From IMG/VR virus record IMGVR_UViG_2541047834_000001: DNA of 37,741 nt; one strand, given 5' to 3'. This document shows, piece by piece, positions 5,173 to 37,741 of this stretch; the first letter of the stretch is position 1, and every line of letters starts with the position of its first letter. The stretch comes from a virus (lineage: Duplodnaviria > Heunggongvirae > Uroviricota > Caudoviricetes). Made by a program: the position numbers and the translations under genes. The notes beneath the pieces are model-generated. The model did no database searches and had not been told where the DNA came from. It saw only the letters and a list, made by a program, of their open reading frames with translations.

Positions 5173-5187
5173 TTACCGTTGAGGTAA
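5173..5187. promoter_or_regulatory. Operator-like palindrome TTACC-GTTGA-GGTAA (leftward early promoter region)
   Basis: Perfect half-sites; adjacent extra TTACC at 5160. Confidence 0.5.
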
Positions 5188-5234
5188 TAATTATGCGTAT
5201 TTGGTTTGGTGTCAATAGATATGAGTTAAAAAAA

Positions 5235-5306: not shown

Positions 5307-5891
5307 TTATTGTTTGTTTTTTTCGTTCTGGTTGATGACAAATTCAATGTAACTTTCGATCTTTGCTTTCTCGGTTTCGGGTAACAATGCGTAGCGCGAG
5401 CGGTCATAGTTGATGGTCGCAGGGTCGTGCGGGTGAATCAGTAATTCATAGCCGTGACGCCCGAATGCGGATGCAACATTCTCCAGGGTGGAAATGGAAA
5501 CGCTGACCTCATTGTTTAACAGGCGGCTGATTGTCACCTGGGCGACGCCGGATGCGCGGTGAAGTTTTCCCTGTGTTGAAAGGTCGCGGCTTTCGCTCAT
5601 CCAGCGTTCCAGGTTGTGAGCCGCCAGCTGACCAATGTCGCTTGGGCCGACAGGCTGAAAACCTTCCTGAGAAAGCGAGCGATCGATATCAAGCCAGTTA
5701 CGGGGTTTATTGGCGGCAGCTTCAATTTTTCGCGCAACCTGGTCGCCGATAACCTTCTTGCCAAGAGCCCAGCGGTTTACCAGATTTGCCTGAGTTCCAA
5801 GTTTTTCTGCCATCCGCGTCTGAACACCATTGAATTCACGGTCGATCAAGTCGTTGAGATTTTGCCTGCGGACGTCCTGGATACTTTTCAT
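5307..5891 (-). CDS. Putative immunity repressor with two HTH (XRE-like) domains
   Basis: 194 aa; two helix-turn-helix-like segments (TRMAEKLGTQANLVNRWALGKK and ASGVAQVTISRLLNNEVSVSISTLENVA); divergent from a Cro-like gene across an operator-rich intergenic region. Confidence 0.65.
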   Translation of the reverse strand: MKSIQDVRRQNLNDLIDREFNGVQTRMAEKLGTQANLVNRWALGKKVIGDQVARKIEAAANKPRNWLDIDRSLSQEGFQPVGPSDIGQLAAHNLERWMSESRDLSTQGKLHRASGVAQVTISRLLNNEVSVSISTLENVASAFGRHGYELLIHPHDPATINYDRSRYALLPETEKAKIESYIEFVINQNEKNKQ

Positions 5892-6276: not shown

Positions 6277-6298
6277 TATCCAGCTACAACCCTCTGTA

Positions 6299-6320
6299 GA
6301 CCGCCACCCGGCGGTCTTTT
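6299..6320 (+). terminator. Rho-independent terminator (tR1-like) after cro-like gene
   Basis: GACCGCC-ACCC-GGCGGTC hairpin followed by TTTT. Confidence 0.65.
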
Positions 6321-6331
6321 CATATCTATTC

Positions 6332-6346: not shown

Positions 6347-6426
6347 TAAAAAACCAAATGTGGTTGATCTTTTTTTTGTGTCAGCACAAAATGACCGTAA
6401 TCCCAATACCAATAACAGGGCTTACC

Positions 6427-8292: not shown

Positions 8293-8339
8293 TAAAATGT
8301 TCTAACGTCTATTGATTTCATGTCTTATGTGGTTTTTAA

Positions 8340-8354
8340 TTACCTAAGGGGTAA
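8340..8354. promoter_or_regulatory. Operator-like palindrome ATTACC-TAAGG-GGTAA
   Basis: Directly upstream of ATG 8358; preceded by TATGTGGTTTTTAA. Confidence 0.5.
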
Positions 8355-12226: not shown

Positions 12227-12500
12227 CCTGCAACTTGCCGTTAAAGGTGAATACTTCGATGCCATGATTCGCGGAGAGAAAACGGAAGAGTATCGCTTGT
12301 GTAATGACTACTGGAATAAGCGAATTATGTTACGCGAGTATGACCGCCTGATTATCACAAAGGGATATCCGAAGCGCGACGACTCCAGTCGCAGAATTGA
12401 TGTTCCGTATGGAGGGTATGAAATCAAGACAATCACACATCCGCACTTCGGCGATAAACCGGTAAATGTGTTCGCGATAAAGGTAAATATTGATGGCTAA
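12219..12500 (+). CDS. ASCH / DUF3850-like protein
   Basis: GTG start with AAGGAGGAAGG RBS; LAVKGEYFDAMIRGEKTEEYR resembles the ASCH-like pattern (recalled, unverified). Confidence 0.55.
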   Translation: MANLQLAVKGEYFDAMIRGEKTEEYRLCNDYWNKRIMLREYDRLIITKGYPKRDDSSRRIDVPYGGYEIKTITHPHFGDKPVNVFAIKVNIDG

Positions 12501-12831
12501 ATCAGCAGCAGAGCGCAAAGCCGCTCAGAGAGCCAGACAAGCTGCATCTGGTGTGCGTAAGCTGGAAATTGTGCTTGATGCTCAGGAAATTGAAATGCTG
12601 GAGCGTAACTGTGCCACGCGTCGCCCCGGGCGTGCGCCTTACGAATTTGGTGAGTATATAGCGTTACTGATCCGCCAGGATGATGCACGCGTGCGCGGGC
12701 GTATAAAATCGATCAGCAGAAAACGTTGCGGTAAGTGCGGCGAGAGAGTTCCAGTTAATTCATGCCCGTGCAATGGTGACTCGCAATGCTGGGTGACTAA
12801 AGGCTGGCATGAAACGAAATTAATAGTGTGA
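12493..12831 (+). CDS. Zinc-ribbon protein (CxxC...CxC), candidate late-gene regulator
   Basis: Basic N-terminus, C-terminal RKRCGKCGERVPVNSCPCNGDSQC; last early gene before terminator and terminase genes. Confidence 0.5.
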   Translation: MAKSAAERKAAQRARQAASGVRKLEIVLDAQEIEMLERNCATRRPGRAPYEFGEYIALLIRQDDARVRGRIKSISRKRCGKCGERVPVNSCPCNGDSQCWVTKGWHETKLIV

Positions 12832-16093: not shown

Positions 16094-16183
16094 TAATTTG
16101 TGCGTTAAATGTCAACTATCTACGATAAATAAATCATATGTGGTTAAATTGGTAATAATTTAATTGCGTACGGAGTCATTGAT

Positions 16184-24361: not shown

Positions 24362-24825
24362 TGATTGATGTTCAAATTATTCCCGCTACCGAAGAGCATC
24401 TTCAGATGATTTTGCCGGATGTTCGTCAGGCTGATATTGACGAACTGTATGCGGTATCGCTGATGACTACCGAAGATGCGCTGCGCGTTGGTCTTCGCAC
24501 TGCGACTATGGCCTGGTCAGGGTTCGCGAACGGAGAACTGGTAACCATGTTTGGTGTATCTCCGGCGTCAATGATCGGTGGCAATGGTACGCCCTGGCTG
24601 GTAGGAACCAGCCGTATTGAAAAATATCAGAAGACATTTCTGCGCCACTGCCGCCCTGTATTGCAGCAGATGCTGGCAGTTTATCCGCGCCTGGAAAACT
24701 ACGTCGACGAGCGAAACCATGTTGCCAAAGCATGGCTGCACTGGCTTGGATTCAGGCTTGAAGAAGCCGCGCCTTATGGTGCTCTTGGTCTTAATTTCCA
24801 CAGATTTCACATGGAGAGAAAATAA
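24361..24825 (+). CDS. Internal virion protein A-like (gp13 position), hypothetical
   Basis: 154 aa; ATGA-coupled. Confidence 0.5.
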   Translation: MIDVQIIPATEEHLQMILPDVRQADIDELYAVSLMTTEDALRVGLRTATMAWSGFANGELVTMFGVSPASMIGGNGTPWLVGTSRIEKYQKTFLRHCRPVLQQMLAVYPRLENYVDERNHVAKAWLHWLGFRLEEAAPYGALGLNFHRFHMERK

Positions 24826-33035: not shown

Positions 33036-33139
33036 TATCTATTCGTATTCACAGTCTTTCTATCCATATGTGGTTTTTAAGGTAATAGAATAACCAGATA
33101 TGCGGCGCAACGGGTGCTGCGACTATCTGGAGATTTAAC

Positions 33140-35329
33140 ATGACGGTCTCAACCGAAGTTGACCACAACGAATACACCGGTAACGGCGTTACGACATCAT
33201 TTCCGTATACCTTCCGTATTTTCAAAAAAACCGACCTGGTTGTTCAGGTGTCTGACCTGAACGGGAACGTAACAGAATTGGTTCTGGATACCGGTTATAA
33301 GGTAACTGGAGCGGGCACTTATAGTGGCGGTGAAGTGGTTCTCCCGTCGCCGCTTGCTGCTGGATGGCGAATTACGATAGAGCGTGTGCTTGATGTGGTG
33401 CAGGAGACTGATCTTCGCAATCAGGGAAAATTTTTCCCCGAAGTTCATGAGGATGCATTTGACTACCTGACGATGCTGATCCAGCGATGTTTCGGGTGGT
33501 TCAGACGTGCATTGATGAAACCATCTTTGCTTGCAAAATATTACGATGCAAAGCAAAACAGAATTTCTAACCTTGCAGATCCATCACTTGAGCAGGACGC
33601 TGTAAATAATCGCTCAATGCGTAATTATGTCGATGCTGCAATCGCCGGGGTTGTTGGTGGTTTTGGTTGGTTTATACCGTCAGGAAGCGGGGCAAGACAA
33701 CGAACATTTCAAAGCAAAATGAGGGATATAATTTCTCCTTGTGATTACGAAGATAATATTTTTATGATTAAGGAGTTGATATCCAAAGGCAAAAATGCCG
33801 CTGTTTTTAACTCATATTATACTTTTGTTATTACTGTTGGCGAATGGGGTGATTACCCTACACTCAAAGATGCAATCATTGCAGCCCAGTCAATGAGACC
33901 TATGTGGGATGGTGGTAATGCTTTCTGCGAAATAAGAATTAAGACCGGGCATATTATCAACTATCAAATTGAATTCAGTTCAGGTGTTGATTTGTCTTGG
34001 ATTAAAATAACATCAGAAGACTCAGTGGTTTTCTCTGACACTCGTTTGTTTACTAAAATCGTTAGAACGTATTACGAATACAAGTATTTATTTTACATTT
34101 GCGATGCAGCAAAAAGTCCTGTATTTGCTATTCAGATCGAAGAAAATAGAGATGATAGCGATGTTTGTGCATTTATTGTAACTCAAAAAGCTGAACTTAA
34201 TTTCTATCCGTATTCAGGTGCTCGAAAGTTCTACGTTGGAATTCATGGTAGTTTTGGTGCAAAAATTAGTGCATATCATACCGGATGTGCTCCTGATGAG
34301 GAAAGTGTTGCTGCATATATGCCAGAAGGGTATTACGTATGTGATTTTTCTTATAGCAGATACTCTTCCCTGCAACTGGTAAATAATGTCAAGGCATCAA
34401 TGCCTGTAAGCAAGTTTGAACGGTGCACAGAGAGTACGGTTGCGTCAGTTAATTGTATTTATAATGTTAAAGCAGATTTTCAGGGGTCAAGTGCAAGCTA
34501 TTGTTATATAGGATGGAATGTAAGAGATGGTTCAAATGTTAATATACGCGACCATAAAACTATACATTGCTCATATCGTGGATTAACCTGCATTCATACA
34601 GCATATGTTGATGCAAGACGACATGACGTTGAAGAAAGTGATGCAGAAACAAGTGGTAAAGTCCTTGAACCAAATATTGAAAAAGGTTTTTATGGATGTG
34701 CACTTGGTGTGCGTATTGATGGTGCGGGTTGCGTTGATGTTGCTGGTAATGATATGCGCAATTGTGGAACAGCCGTTAATGCAGACACTGGTGCTGTTAT
34801 TTCAGGAAAGGCTGTAGATATCTCAGGGGCTGAGCTGGGATTTGATTGCCATGCAGGAGCATCTGTTAATTTTCCAAGGCTATGGGGTACAGATATAAAA
34901 AAATTAATGCACCTCCAAGATGGTGTAAGGTTTAACTCTAATATTTGTCATGTATTTGGTGCAAATCCCACAAAAGATATTAGATGGATTGATGTAGAGA
35001 GATCTGAAGCTTCTTTTATGAATGCAACGCTGGATGCAGATTCAGGATTTATTGCCGACTGTGGTAGTAGGATAACCATTGAAGGAAGTAAAGTTAAAAA
35101 CCAAACAATAAGAAGTTTTTTTGGATCATATGTGGCTATAAATAATACTGTTGCTGACAGAACTTATTCAGATATAGCCGATGTTCCGCAGTTGACTATT
35201 AGTGGAGGATCTTTTATTTCTGCTACAGGATATTCTAATTCTGACTCCAGCCCTCTGAGGTTGAGCACAACACGAAATACACTTGGCGTTGGAGGAGCTA
35301 TATTTTCAACCAATGGGGAAGTTTCATGA
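33140..35329 (+). CDS. Tail fibre / tailspike protein (conserved N-terminal adaptor, variable AT-rich distal domain)
   Basis: 729 aa; N-terminus (NEYTGNGVTTSFPYTF...NRISNLADPSLEQDAVNNRSMRNY) resembles podovirus tail-fibre anchors; distal portion about 35% GC. Confidence 0.75.
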   Translation: MTVSTEVDHNEYTGNGVTTSFPYTFRIFKKTDLVVQVSDLNGNVTELVLDTGYKVTGAGTYSGGEVVLPSPLAAGWRITIERVLDVVQETDLRNQGKFFPEVHEDAFDYLTMLIQRCFGWFRRALMKPSLLAKYYDAKQNRISNLADPSLEQDAVNNRSMRNYVDAAIAGVVGGFGWFIPSGSGARQRTFQSKMRDIISPCDYEDNIFMIKELISKGKNAAVFNSYYTFVITVGEWGDYPTLKDAIIAAQSMRPMWDGGNAFCEIRIKTGHIINYQIEFSSGVDLSWIKITSEDSVVFSDTRLFTKIVRTYYEYKYLFYICDAAKSPVFAIQIEENRDDSDVCAFIVTQKAELNFYPYSGARKFYVGIHGSFGAKISAYHTGCAPDEESVAAYMPEGYYVCDFSYSRYSSLQLVNNVKASMPVSKFERCTESTVASVNCIYNVKADFQGSSASYCYIGWNVRDGSNVNIRDHKTIHCSYRGLTCIHTAYVDARRHDVEESDAETSGKVLEPNIEKGFYGCALGVRIDGAGCVDVAGNDMRNCGTAVNADTGAVISGKAVDISGAELGFDCHAGASVNFPRLWGTDIKKLMHLQDGVRFNSNICHVFGANPTKDIRWIDVERSEASFMNATLDADSGFIADCGSRITIEGSKVKNQTIRSFFGSYVAINNTVADRTYSDIADVPQLTISGGSFISATGYSNSDSSPLRLSTTRNTLGVGGAIFSTNGEVS

Positions 35330-35622
35330 TTAAGAGCATTGATGTCACTCCATTTCTTCACTCGCTTTGCGCTTTTGCGGCTCAGGTACTGGTTGGTATT
35401 TTTACCGGAAACTGGGCTTACGGTGCGATAGCCGGTTGTACGTTCTTCATTGCGCGTGAACACACCCAGGCAGAATATCGCTGGATAGAAAAGTTTGGGA
35501 AAGGGAAACGTATCAACATGCCGTGGTGGGGAGGTTTTGATCCACGCGTGTGGGATGTGGGAAGTCTGTTGGATTTTGCTGTTCCTGTTGTTTTTTGTTT
35601 TTGTGTTTATTTCTCTATTTGA
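35326..35622 (+). CDS. Small membrane protein (98 aa) coupled to tail fibre gene
   Basis: ATGA overlap with tail fibre stop; two hydrophobic segments. Confidence 0.5.
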   Translation: MIKSIDVTPFLHSLCAFAAQVLVGIFTGNWAYGAIAGCTFFIAREHTQAEYRWIEKFGKGKRINMPWWGGFDPRVWDVGSLLDFAVPVVFCFCVYFSI

Positions 35623-35627
35623 CTGCT

Positions 35628-35650
35628 ACCGCGCCATTAAATGGTGCGGT
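35628..35650. promoter_or_regulatory. 23-bp near-palindrome ACCGCGCCATTAAATGGTGCGGT upstream of lysis cassette
   Basis: Inverted repeat with one G/T mismatch in intergenic 35623-35824. Confidence 0.4.
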
Positions 35651-35752
35651 ATTCAACCTGCTCTTCACTGTTTGTTTCTTCAGAGTCATGTAAAAGGTGA
35701 GCTTTATTCTCGGCATGAAAAACAGGGAATTGACGATGTTAAAGTAACAAAA

Positions 35753-35766
35753 AACCATAAATGGTT
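35753..35766. promoter_or_regulatory. Palindrome AACCAT-AA-ATGGTT overlapping a -10-like ATAAAT
   Basis: Shares CCAT(T)AAATGG core with 35628-35650; TTGACG 17 bp upstream. Confidence 0.4.
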
Positions 35767-35824
35767 TATTATGCGTAATGCTTTACTGTTCAGGAGGTTG
35801 TTATGCATATAAACGGTGGAAAAC

Positions 35825-36229
35825 ATGTCAGCTCAACTAACCAGTGAAACTTTAAATCAGTGGCTTAGCATGAGTTCTCTGGCGGCGGTGATAGCAGGAG
35901 TTCCTCCTGAGGTTGCTTTGGGTGCTTTGGCTGGAGCGGTAATTTTTGTTACCTCTGCAGTAGAGTACCCCATCCGTCGCCGGGTGCTCCTGTCGATGCT
36001 CAGCTTTCTTTGCGGCCTTCTCTTTTACAAACCAGCAGCATCAATTCTTATCGGCATAGCCAGCCTGATCCCTACCATCACGCAGGACTCTTTTGAAAAA
36101 GGGATTGTTTTCTCTGCAGGCGCATTCGTGTCAGCAATTGTCGCTGTGCGTATTGGTATATGGCTCTATCACCGTTCCGATAATCCACGCGAGTTAATTC
36201 CGGGGAGAAAAGACGATGGTAACGCATGA
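35825..36229 (+). CDS. Membrane protein, possible holin/antiholin
   Basis: Multiple TM segments; directly upstream of and overlapping the next membrane gene and endolysin; start may be GTG 35816. Confidence 0.45.
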   Translation: MSAQLTSETLNQWLSMSSLAAVIAGVPPEVALGALAGAVIFVTSAVEYPIRRRVLLSMLSFLCGLLFYKPAASILIGIASLIPTITQDSFEKGIVFSAGAFVSAIVAVRIGIWLYHRSDNPRELIPGRKDDGNA

Positions 36230-36524
36230 GTTTTTTTTGCTTATCACCAATGCAGTTATTTGCACTGGCATAGCAATTCGCGTTGTCACATTCCGGCGTA
36301 ACGGCTCTCAACACCGAAGGTGGGGAGGATGGCTTGCTTATTTCCTGATTGTTGCTGCGGCCAGTATTCCTGTTCGTGTCGCCTATGCAATCTGGTTACG
36401 TACGCCAATGGCTGTGGATTTATCTGAGGTCATTATCAACGCTGTCATGCTGGCTGCGGTTATTAAAACGCGCGGTAACGTCGTTCAAATTTTTAAAGTA
36501 TCGAGGTCTAAACATGGAGATTAA
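36216..36524 (+). CDS. Putative holin (3 TM, charged C-terminus)
   Basis: 102 aa with three hydrophobic segments and basic tail, immediately upstream of the endolysin gene. Confidence 0.5.
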
Positions 36525-37143
36525 ACAATTCCAGCGAGCTGCTGGTATCAGCGAGGCACTGGCCGCACGCTGGTTCTCGCATATAACTTCTGCGATGAAA
36601 GAGTTTGGTATCAGCAAAGCAGAAGATCAGGCAATGTTTATTGCTCAAGTCGGGCATGAGTCTGGGAGCTTCACCAGGTTGCAGGAGAATTTCAACTACA
36701 GTGTCAGCGGACTGGCTAACTTCGTTCGGGCTGGGCGTCTCACTCAGGGGCAGGCTAATGCACTGGGGCGCCGTGCTGGTGAAGCACCATTGCCACTTGA
36801 GCGCCAGCGCGCGATCGCAAATCTGGTATACAGCAAACGCATGGGGAACAATGCCCCTGGTGATGGCTGGAATTACCGAGGGCGCGGACTTATCCAGATT
36901 ACCGGTTTGAATAACTATCGTGATTGCGGAAACGGTCTGAAGGTTGACCTGCTGGAGAGCCCTGAACTGCTGGCGCAGGACGAATATGCGGCTCGTAGCG
37001 CGGCGTGGTTCTTCGTCAGCAAAGGCTGCATGAAGTATACCGGCGATATTGTACGTGTAACTCTGATTATCAATGGTGGCAGAAACGGTATCGACGACCG
37101 GCGTGCGCGGTACATCACAGCAAGTAAGGTACTGGCGGTATGA
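36514..37143 (+). CDS. Endolysin, glycoside hydrolase family 19 (chitinase-like lysozyme)
   Basis: [12 protein letters not shown]...[16 protein letters not shown] motifs typical of GH19 endolysins; ATG at 36514. Confidence 0.8.
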
Positions 37144-37637
37144 TCTGGGCATTTGTAAAAGCATACCGTAAACAGTTACTTATCGTGGCGATGCTTGCTG
37201 TTCTGGTCATATCAGGAGTTGTTGCCTGGAATGTGCACGGCATCCGTCAGTACGATGCCGGGTATGCGCAGGCGAAGGAAGATCAGAAACAGGCTGATGA
37301 TAAGTTAAGGTCACAGCGTGAGCAGGAGAAAACACAAATTGAACGTGAAGCACAATCCCGTATCGATGCGGCGCGTGCTGATGCTGAGTATGCTAATTCC
37401 GCTGCTGACAGCATGCGCGCCGAGCTTGACAAAACCAGGCGGCTCGCCGAACACTATACCGGATCTTTCCCCCCTGGCACGCCAGCCAGCAAGGTCATCG
37501 GTGTGCTCGCCGACATGCTTGAAGAAAGCAACCGAGTTTACAACGCAACAGCAACTGAGGCTGAAAAGTATCGTATCGCAGGGGAATTCTGCGAGCAGCA
37601 ATACGATTCACTGAAGAAGCAAAAATCGTGGCACTGA
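37140..37637 (+). CDS. Rz-like i-spanin
   Basis: N-terminal TM ([18 protein letters not shown]) followed by charged coiled-coil; ATGA-coupled to endolysin. Confidence 0.7.
37366..37614 (+). CDS. Rz1-like o-spanin lipoprotein embedded in the +1 frame of Rz
   Basis: [20 protein letters not shown]: signal peptide with lipobox LTAC; Pro-rich mature part; entirely inside the Rz ORF. Confidence 0.6.
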   Translation: MRRVLMLSMLIPLLTACAPSLTKPGGSPNTIPDLSPLARQPARSSVCSPTCLKKATEFTTQQQLRLKSIVSQGNSASSNTIH

Positions 37638-37724: not shown

Positions 37725-37741
37725 ATTGAGTGGGAATGATT
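37725..37741. repeat. attR core: 17-bp direct repeat identical to 1-17
   Basis: Exact repeat at window end. Confidence 0.8.

Follow-up and report, generated by a model that had tools for sequence, protein, structure and literature searches.

A putative regulatory dyad, a predicted leader RNA hairpin and a mobile membrane-protein gene upstream of the lysis genes of an epsilon15-like prophage

INTRODUCTION

Several ways of controlling and executing phage lysis have been described. The lambda S gene is controlled by the sdi stem-loop and by the dual start that gives S107 and S105. Hairpins processed by RNase III occur in phage leaders, for example in the lambda N leader and at intergenic sites of T7. 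Lysis systems that use two membrane proteins include Y and LysA of P2, LydA and LydB of P1, and XhlA and XhlB of PBSX. Other small phage proteins alter the cell surface. Among these are the O-antigen polymerase inhibitors epsilon15 gp21 and D3 Iap, together with T5 Llp and Cor. We have analyzed a locus in which elements resembling each of these are found side by side. It lies toward the right-hand end of IMG/VR virus record IMGVR_UViG_2541047834_000001, a DNA of 37,741 nucleotides that we call the window. Here the tailspike gene is followed by an open reading frame (ORF) for a small membrane protein of 98 amino acids (ORF98), an intergenic region with two palindromes, and a lysis cassette.

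Our analysis indicates that this is probably the right end of a prophage in which ORF98 is a cargo gene whose module is closed by a hairpin. This would be followed by one copy (D) of a dyad, which we term M2, and by a leader hairpin acting as a gate to translation of the first gene of a cassette for paired holin-family proteins, a GH19 endolysin and Rz/Rz1 spanins. Coordinates are those of the window. All genes, RNA elements and candidate sites are on the + strand, except dyad copy D, to which no strand is assigned.

RESULTS

The window is a complete prophage

The 17 nt sequence ATTGAGTGGGAATGATT is present in identical form at both ends of the window, at positions 1-17 and 37725-37741, and is the att core reported for the related phage ZX5 (PMC9782041). 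The window therefore corresponds to exactly one whole integrated prophage, and it is a complete Escherichia coli prophage of Uetakevirus (epsilon15/phiV10-like). By nucleotide comparison the section 35200-36600 is 99.7% identical to Escherichia phage HEMP4, and phiv142-3, ZX5, TL-2011b, PAS61, phiV10 and Tyrion are 82-96% identical to it in parts. Most of these relatives are classified in Uetakevirus, which is the epsilon15/phiV10 group. The order at the right end of the prophage is tailspike, variable cargo slot, lysis cassette and attR. The gap between ORF98 and the first lysis gene (35623-35824) comprises 202 nt with a GC content of 38.6%, compared to 49.2% for the window, in agreement with an original prediction of an AT-rich intergenic region of about 200 bp.

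The second palindrome belongs to a family of four dyads

The gap contains two inverted repeats. Only 0.1% of shuffles contain two palindromes of such quality within 202 nt, so both repeats that had been noticed are real and beyond chance. They are different in kind. The first is an RNA hairpin, the second is a dyad present in four copies in the genome, and the core that they appear to share has arisen by chance.

The second palindrome (AACCATAAATGGTT, 14 nt, 35753-35766, within an inverted repeat at 35749-35770) is copy D of the M2 family. Copy A (AACCAAATGTGGTT, 6352-6365) follows the terminator (6298-6325) that lies after a cro-like gene, and is placed ahead of the replication genes. Copy B (AATCATATGTGGTT, 16132-16145) precedes the portal/head operon. 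Copy C (ATCCATATGTGGTT, 33062-33075) precedes the tailspike gene, and is followed by GGTAATAGAAT and a hairpin in the 5' untranslated region (33094-33130). Copies A-C are all within two mismatches of D, all are intergenic, and each heads a rightward operon. Counting both strands, the window has 15 matches to M2 where shuffled sequences give 5.2 +/- 2.9, and four genomes have 5-7 matches each compared to 0.6-0.9 in shuffles. PhiV10, epsilon15 and Tyrion have the dyad at the same four sites.

Copy D is conserved in place across 38-42 distinct regions upstream of the first lysis gene. When these regions are aligned the similarity starts abruptly at the dyad, whatever lies upstream. The right arm is much more strongly conserved than the left, and the sequence GTAAC or GGTAA recurs 4-5 nt upstream of the dyad in the relatives. 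As RNA, the dyad alone folds weakly (z = -0.7). Judged by its conservation and placement, we take M2 to be a real, phage-specific regulatory element, and the earlier suggestion that the second palindrome is a conserved, regulatory-looking feature upstream of the lysis cassette is borne out. Its probable role is to bind a phage-specific regulator or to contribute to a non-canonical promoter. By-eye comparison with the consensus sequences for LexA, DnaA, IHF, CRP and Fur showed that none of these fits.

A number of other features were observed around the dyads. More degenerate copies of M2 lie beside repressor sites at ~8325-8340 and ~5190-5203 in the window, and at 34215 and 37308 in Tyrion (L109). 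In many cases half of a repressor site, GGTAA(T/C)-N4, stands in front of the dyad, and the two motifs may be functionally linked. The 11-mer ATCTATTCGTA is common to sites A (6321-6331) and C (33037-33047), on opposite sides of the adjacent repressor site in the two cases. The hairpin at site C is strong (-20.9 kcal/mol, z = -5.5), and has the conserved GGTAATAGAAT block on one side and the tailspike ribosome-binding site on the other. A GC-rich counterpart is found in Klebsiella and epsilon15 relatives.

When the phiv142-3 lysogen is grown in serum the most induced prophage genes include orf41, orf40 and orf6 (PMC7724020 Table S1). orf41 and orf40 are just downstream of dyad site A, and orf6, encoding the tail fiber, is downstream of site C. 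This hints that the operons marked by the dyad are co-regulated even in the lysogen.

A leader hairpin is conserved in the RNA upstream of the lysis genes

The block of sequence that directly follows the dyad (GGTTTATTGTGTATGAT in most relatives) is complementary to a second stretch, whose end immediately precedes the ribosome-binding site of the first lysis gene. The two are predicted to form a leader hairpin of RNase III type (35764-35814), having a 5' arm at 35764-35778, a 3' arm at 35801-35814 and an apical helix in which 35782-84 pairs with 35794-96. In an alignment of 38 distinct sequences the 15 bp stem plus the 3 bp apical helix are paired in 92.9% of cells, whereas controls in which the partner was slid are 35-56% paired. 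The covariation is 0.322 compared to a maximum of 0.123 in the controls, and none of 500 shuffles reaches 0.322. At pair 32-73 there are 17 sequences with GC and 16 with AU. The alignment contains 139 G.U cells and 15 A.C cells, an asymmetry that is expected only for RNA of the + strand and that points to this RNA as the one in which the structure forms. The predicted folding free energies are -31.1 kcal/mol for phiV10 (z = -6.9) and -35.1 kcal/mol for epsilon15 (z = -6.2), compared to -15.4 kcal/mol for the window (z = -2.3).

In the epsilon15 record the homologous place (24755-24817) carries a predicted feature labeled 'RNaseIII mRNA processing'. The hairpin is therefore not new, but the support from covariation is. 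Rfam has no family that matches within 35200-36300.

The 5' arm of the hairpin includes a hexamer that resembles a -10 box. In the window this reads CGTAAT, in which the key A is lost and a G.U pair is kept. This indicates that the constraint from the RNA structure dominates over that of a -10 box at this position.

The stem buries the ATG of a mini-ORF (an upstream open reading frame, 35803-35847) of 14 codons, having a strong Shine-Dalgarno sequence AGGAGG at 35792-35797 and overlapping the start of hol8, the first lysis gene, in another frame. Of 38 distinct relatives 32 have its ATG, which precedes that of hol8 by 22-23 nt, and the encoded peptide differs between two frame groups (MHINGGKHVS... 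and MHSKRW...). Three of the six sequences that lack the ATG are of the ZX5 type, in which hol8 has a strong Shine-Dalgarno sequence (AGGAG) to itself. The combination of dyad, leader hairpin and mini-ORF is a modest but worthwhile lead.

The first palindrome is a stem-loop that accompanies ORF98

The first palindrome (35627-35651) begins 4 nt after the stop codon of ORF98. Its 12 nt arms are 92% complementary with one G.T mismatch, and as RNA it is predicted to form a GC-rich stem-loop of -17.5 kcal/mol (z = -4.4). Ten distinct relatives retain the stem, in which one position is either G.U or G-C, and have the loop TTAAA, TTTGA or TCAAA. The core changes to CCATTTGATGG or CCATCAAATGG in relatives. 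Since the stem is maintained while the loop varies, what was taken for a core is the free loop of a hairpin.

The exact match between the two palindromes is just 8 nt (TAAATGGT). A direct repeat of at least 8 nt is found in 25% of shuffles, and the match is not conserved in relatives, so the proposal of a core common to both palindromes has to be abandoned.

In Uetakeviruses the stem-loop travels with the ORF98 module, while in P22-like contexts the 3' flank is different. The sequence following the stem (ATTCAACC) has no U-tract, and the terminator scan makes no call here. The element is terminator-like, but lacking the U-tract would be at best a weak terminator or a stabilizer of a 3' end. 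A Pectobacterium relative has different palindromes at both equivalent sites, too untidy for a claim of co-variation.

Operators and promoters ahead of the lysis genes

In epsilon15 the palindrome ATTACC-N5-GGTAAT is annotated as a repressor site, and it clusters in the immunity region. At sites B and C of the window, of phiV10 and of epsilon15, 26-38 nt separate it from the dyad, which lies downstream. In epsilon15 (24704) and phiV10 (24692) it is also present upstream of dyad D, 29 nt from the dyad. In the window there is no match within two mismatches at 35330-35824, and from these positions the repressor operator has evidently been replaced at site D by the ORF98 module. Elsewhere in the window, 15-17 nt versions of the form (A)TTACC-N5-GGTAA(T) occur at 5173, 5235, 5947, 5964, 5995, 6332, 8278, 8340, 12918, 16079 and 33021 (also 151). 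The immunity region has three of these palindromes, and others precede many operons throughout the window. This distribution suggests that the prophage repressor (5307-5891) may act directly at many promoters.

We also looked for promoters of the sigma-70 type. In the region nine such matches were found, compared to 9.0 expected from shuffles. The only one in the gap is GTAACA-17-TATTAT (35744-35772), which matches at 9/12 positions, has the dyad within its spacer, and is a weak candidate. A simple scan found no sigma-70 promoter in the control region of epsilon15. Reading by hand, M2 copies B and C have a consistent -35/17/-10 geometry, and copy D is without it. The product of a candidate late-regulator gene, phrog_536 (12490-12831), has no relative in Pfam or the PDB.

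How, then, might transcription of the lysis genes be controlled? The original prediction envisaged that the two palindromes are related operators of one repressor, controlling a sigma-70 lysis promoter TTGACG ... ATAAAT. Both palindromes are indeed real, and the second is conserved upstream of the lysis genes. Moreover, overexpression of the repressor in ZX5 abolishes the holin and endolysin transcripts (PMC9782041), although this is equally expected from a general repression of the lytic cycle. Yet we consider the two-operator arrangement most improbable. TTGACG (35730-35735) and ATAAAT (35757-35762) are separated by 21 bp rather than the 17 bp that had been given, outside the range of 16-18 bp, and so are not acceptable as a promoter. 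The shared 8 nt word is of a kind common in shuffled sequence, and lies in a loop that varies while its stem is kept. Finally, the repressor operator of this group is the different motif ATTACC-N5-GGTAAT, which is missing upstream of the lysis cassette in the window. A regulated control region ahead of the lysis genes remains plausible; it is the pair of related operators and the TTGACG/ATAAAT promoter that fall. A dedicated late lysis promoter of another kind is quite possible, if somewhat short of probable. The dyad would be the site of an operator or activator within it, with either GTAACA-17-TATTAT as the promoter or the dyad replacing the -35 box, and the hairpin would matter only for read-through transcripts. 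All four dyads head rightward operons, and in two of them, B and C, the left half provides a -35-like hexamer 17 bp before TAATTT or TAGAAT. In addition a hexamer TAttgT comes right after the dyad, with T28 and T34 invariant and A29 in 33 of 38 sequences. In epsilon15 and phiV10 a cargo gene of opposite orientation separates the tailspike gene from the lysis genes, and epsilon15 also has a terminator after the tailspike, so these phages need a local promoter for lysis. Against this, the sigma-70 match is absent from the epsilon15 control region and at chance level in the window, the dyad and hexamer are spaced 3 nt differently at D than at B and C, and the right arm is far more conserved than the left, unlike a symmetric site for a dimer. 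The Klebsiella relatives do without the dyad site altogether.

ORF98 occupies a cargo slot behind the receptor-binding gene

The tailspike or receptor-binding protein is encoded by a 729-aa ORF (33140-35329) that matches phrog_5662 ('tail fiber') over its full length. ORF98 (35326-35622) begins within it, the start lying in an ATGA overlap with the tailspike stop. The 3' end of the tailspike gene together with ORF98 is 98% identical to the P22-like phage JEP4. The earlier view of the first membrane protein as coupled to the stop of the tail fiber gene thus holds, but not that of two transmembrane (TM) segments, since hydropathy and an AlphaFold2 (AF2) model both give three helices. The model has a predicted local distance difference test (pLDDT) score of 93, with helices at 8-27, 30-57 and 78-97, and ORF98 is predicted to be an inner-membrane protein. 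The loop that contains an invariant polar motif, AREHTQAEYRWI ... PWWGGFD, has many Lys and Arg residues, and from the positive-inside rule it probably faces the cytoplasm.

ORF98 matches phrog_1443 (function not known) with E = 2.5e-55. It has no match in Pfam, NCBIfam or PADLOC, its model has no fold match by Foldseek against the PDB and BFVD, and a sequence-profile search of the PDB returned nothing. Homologs fall into 428 clusters, labeled 'hypothetical'. A profile search of 1.84 billion representatives gave 450 clusters; among the 150 of these that were listed, all are stand-alone proteins of 58-146 aa without an informative fusion. Ten distant members of the family have no Pfam match.

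In every context opened, ORF98 is directly behind a receptor-binding gene, often overlapping its stop. This is true of the P22-like phages JEP4 and Gally, the lambdoid phage ev243 and a common E. coli prophage. In a Comamonas prophage it is behind a GpJ-type gene, in P2/HP1-like prophages of Aeromonas and Leclercia it lies between a fiber gene and further tail genes, and in a Salmonella contig it is between two tailspike genes. In other contexts the upstream gene is separated by gaps of 77-240 nt. The family is thus found behind receptor-binding genes in podo-, sipho- and myophages. Of 5426 complete E. coli genomes, 1829 contain DNA related to ORF98, the median being two copies. It occurs in up to seven places per E. 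coli genome, mostly at 80-90% identity, and the exact arrangement of ORF98 plus the lysis genes is found in 58 E. coli genomes.

The phages phiV10, epsilon15, ZX5, Tyrion, TL-2011b and PAS61 have the same lysis cassette without ORF98, and ORF98 is also found in phages whose lysis genes are elsewhere. ORF98 is therefore not part of the lysis unit, and the idea that three consecutive membrane proteins form such a unit can be set aside. It occupies a cargo slot between the receptor-binding protein gene and the next module, as a moron does. In phiV10, Tyrion, TL-2011b, PAS61 and epsilon15 the same slot contains O-antigen modification genes, either oac / O-antigen acetylase or epsilon15 gp21/gp22 (polymerase inhibitor and polymerase). 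On comparison of these gene orders, ORF98 appears as cargo in a conversion slot, outside the lysis cassette. It has no similarity to epsilon15 gp21, and searches of Pfam, NCBIfam and PADLOC and for related folds revealed no homology to a known conversion or exclusion protein. The papers on phiv142-3 contain nothing on orf5, its ORF98 homolog, and we found no expression data for ORF98. Gnarl1-3 are small stand-alone modifiers of O-antigen (PMC12373910), and provide a precedent. The most likely role for ORF98 would be an accessory one directed to the envelope, for example in exclusion or in modification of the surface, and independent of any one receptor. The alternative offered originally, of a conversion or exclusion factor, therefore stays the best guess from its position in the slot of the O-antigen genes, while homology to such proteins gives it no help.

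Two other roles for ORF98 deserve consideration. Holin genes adjoin tail-fiber genes in other phage groups (T7 17.5, T4 t), and ORF98, which encodes a small membrane protein, has the orientation of the cassette and lies 200 nt ahead of it. It might then be a third membrane protein in lysis timing (holin, antiholin or regulator), working with the two downstream proteins. This is very unlikely given its absence from most phages with the cassette and its presence in phages with unrelated, distant lysis cassettes; nor does it match a holin family in Pfam or PHROGs, and its invariant polar motif is unlike holins. A role in the service of the tail fiber rather than at the host surface, for example as a membrane-associated factor in maturation or assembly, is less far-fetched, though still unlikely. 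ORF98 invariably adjoins diverse receptor-binding protein genes, with a start that often overlaps their stop, and its positions among fiber and tail genes in the P2/HP1-like prophages, and between two tailspike genes in one case, suggest late co-expression. On the other hand many relatives with homologous tailspike N-termini lack ORF98, and the neighboring receptor-binding proteins are of unrelated types, some with an intramolecular chaperone (Peptidase_S74) of their own. We know of no membrane-embedded fiber chaperone that has been described.

The lysis cassette

The first lysis gene, hol8 (35825-36229), encodes a 134-aa protein of the Phage_holin_8 family (PF16931, 4.4e-12, 46.7 bits compared to a cut-off of 26.4; phrog_198 'holin', 6e-42) that is homologous to epsilon15 gp23 and phiV10 p27. 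It has three hydrophobic segments and a charged C-terminal tail. The second, hol3_7 (36216-36524), encodes a 102-aa protein of the Phage_holin_3_7 (DUF754) family (PF05449, 5.1e-27, 94.2 bits, cut-off 25.4; phrog_217 'holin'), also with three hydrophobic segments, and with a basic C-terminal tail (K84, R86, K94, R97, K99). The claim of two overlapping multi-TM proteins ahead of a GH19 endolysin was thus correct, and so was the lack of a dual start of the lambda type in either. Upstream of hol8 the reading frame offers no other start than a GTG (35816) that falls within the Shine-Dalgarno sequence of hol8 itself, and hol3_7 has a single start.

The GH19 endolysin (36514-37143) is soluble and of the SPN1S type (PF00182, 35.5 bits, cut-off 25.5; PDB 4ok7, E = 3.7e-115). 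It has no hydrophobic segment, whether a signal or a signal-anchor-release segment, and therefore needs a holin that forms holes. It is followed by an Rz-type inner-membrane spanin (37140-37637; PF10721, 1e-21; phrog_312 'Rz-like spanin') with an N-terminal TM segment at 14-32. A gene for an Rz1-type outer-membrane spanin (37366-37614, within the ORF 37318-37614; the start codon is inferred) is embedded in Rz in the +1 frame, and has the lipobox LLTAC. Its position corresponds to those of phiV10 p30a and epsilon15 Rz1. With a TM segment in Rz and a lipoprotein gene lying wholly inside it, this is a two-component embedded spanin system. All neighbors in the cassette overlap by 4-14 nt, including 14 nt for hol8/hol3_7 and 11 nt for hol3_7 and the endolysin. 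In the free phage genome a terminator lies 3' of the lysis genes; on integration it comes to be at the left end (~60-95).

hol8 and hol3_7 are unrelated in sequence, and hol3_7 always follows hol8, even where the type of endolysin is different. The pair is kept in relatives from E. coli, Salmonella, Enterobacter, Klebsiella and Pectobacterium. In the Pectobacterium relative (L096, 3610-5378) it is combined with a GH108 + PG_binding_3 endolysin, and in the Klebsiella relatives (L098, 3599-3607) the first lysis gene begins 8 nt after the tailspike gene, without a control region. That the pair survives a change of endolysin, and is kept in Klebsiella, argues that the two proteins work together. 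Such constant co-occurrence is what a holin/antiholin pair encoded by two separate genes would show. One protein cluster (P0261, 232 aa, 21 member sequences) has PF16931 and PF05449 in a single polypeptide, either a frameshift artefact or a natural fusion.

DISCUSSION

The genes present, the RNA stem, the family of dyads and the mobility of ORF98 are what was observed, and from these we infer the remaining steps as follows. The first palindrome would close the ORF98 cargo module. Transcripts of the tailspike gene, coming from the region of dyad C with its TAGAAT and 5' hairpin, probably run on into the lysis genes. This is possible because there is no full terminator between, and the Klebsiella gene order may be viewed in the same light. 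A local promoter overlapping the dyad may add to transcription of the lysis genes. In the leader, the hairpin pairs the -10-like block with the start of the mini-ORF. Its opening, either by RNase III or by translation of the mini-ORF, could then set the translation of hol8 and hence the time of lysis. Acting together, hol8 and hol3_7 would let the GH19 endolysin through the inner membrane, and the embedded Rz/Rz1 would finish the outer membrane, with all five genes translationally coupled.

Some of the data do not sit easily with this scheme. The function predicted for ORF98 rests on context, and the overlap of its start with the tailspike stop suggests late co-expression, rather than the expression in the lysogen that is typical of conversion genes. 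The leader hairpin of the window is much weaker than in the relatives, at about -15 to -17 kcal/mol with z of -1.3 to -2.3, and the GC/AU covariation at pair 32-73 may be due to a single split between two clades. Transcription that started at either of the -10-like hexamers after the dyad would leave the 5' arm untranscribed, so the position of the promoter is not reconciled with the hairpin model. A literature search found no experimental work on either holin family or on the cassette.

The scheme can be taken further, though what follows is speculative and we would not be surprised to see it fail. ORF98 may be the founder of a previously unrecognized and very widespread class of small inner-membrane proteins, tied to receptor-binding genes in podo-, sipho- and myophages, that act through AREHTQAEYRWI ... 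PWWGGFD, on the probable cytoplasmic side, on a conserved envelope pathway of the host, giving exclusion or surface remodeling independently of the receptor. Quite separately, the dyad, hairpin and mini-ORF may constitute a dedicated translational gate that times lysis in epsilon15-like phages.

As a lysis module the cassette adds nothing new. It is an ordinary module, already annotated, in a near-duplicate of a known phage. What lies upstream is of greater interest. About one in three complete E. coli genomes has members of the ORF98 family, often more than one and always beside the gene that determines host range, yet the family has no Pfam entry, fold match or known function. Its function, once known, would bear on the engineering of phage host range and on exclusion mediated by prophages. 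The four dyad copies provide a handle on late regulation in this phage genus. A leader hairpin with a mini-ORF, placed before a holin system of two proteins, makes it possible to test, in a phage other than lambda, whether lysis is timed through translation.

Compared with the two-membrane-protein lysis systems of P2, P1 and PBSX, the locus similarly has two small membrane-protein genes immediately upstream of the endolysin. It differs in that scans of Pfam, PHROGs and NCBIfam returned only PF16931/phrog_198 and PF05449/phrog_217, and none of the holin families that those systems use. As with lambda S, the first lysis gene is closely preceded by an RNA structure in which translation start signals take part, a plausible device for timing lysis. 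However, the buried start here belongs to a separate, out-of-frame mini-ORF, and the candidate partner of the holin is encoded by a separate and unrelated gene. The long imperfect hairpin in the mRNA leader resembles the 15-25 bp RNase III hairpins of the lambda N leader and T7, but RNase III processing is here a predicted feature of the epsilon15 record, and the hairpin has no Rfam match. Like gp21, Iap, Gnarl, Llp and Cor, ORF98 is small and stand-alone, and sits beside a receptor-binding gene in a conversion slot. It is distinguished from them in having no similarity to gp21 and no match to a known family or fold, and in not being matched to one type of receptor.

The greatest likeness is to epsilon15 (gp23-gp26 plus Rz1) and phiV10 (p27-p30a). 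In the place of their oac or gp21/gp22 the cargo slot of the window contains ORF98. The window is also without the repressor operator upstream of dyad D, its hairpin is weaker, and the -10-like hexamer b has been lost (CGTAAT). Yet all three have the same five genes in the same order and with the same overlaps, drawn from the same families (PF16931, PF05449, GH19, DUF2514 Rz and an embedded Rz1), and preceded by the same dyad and leader hairpin.

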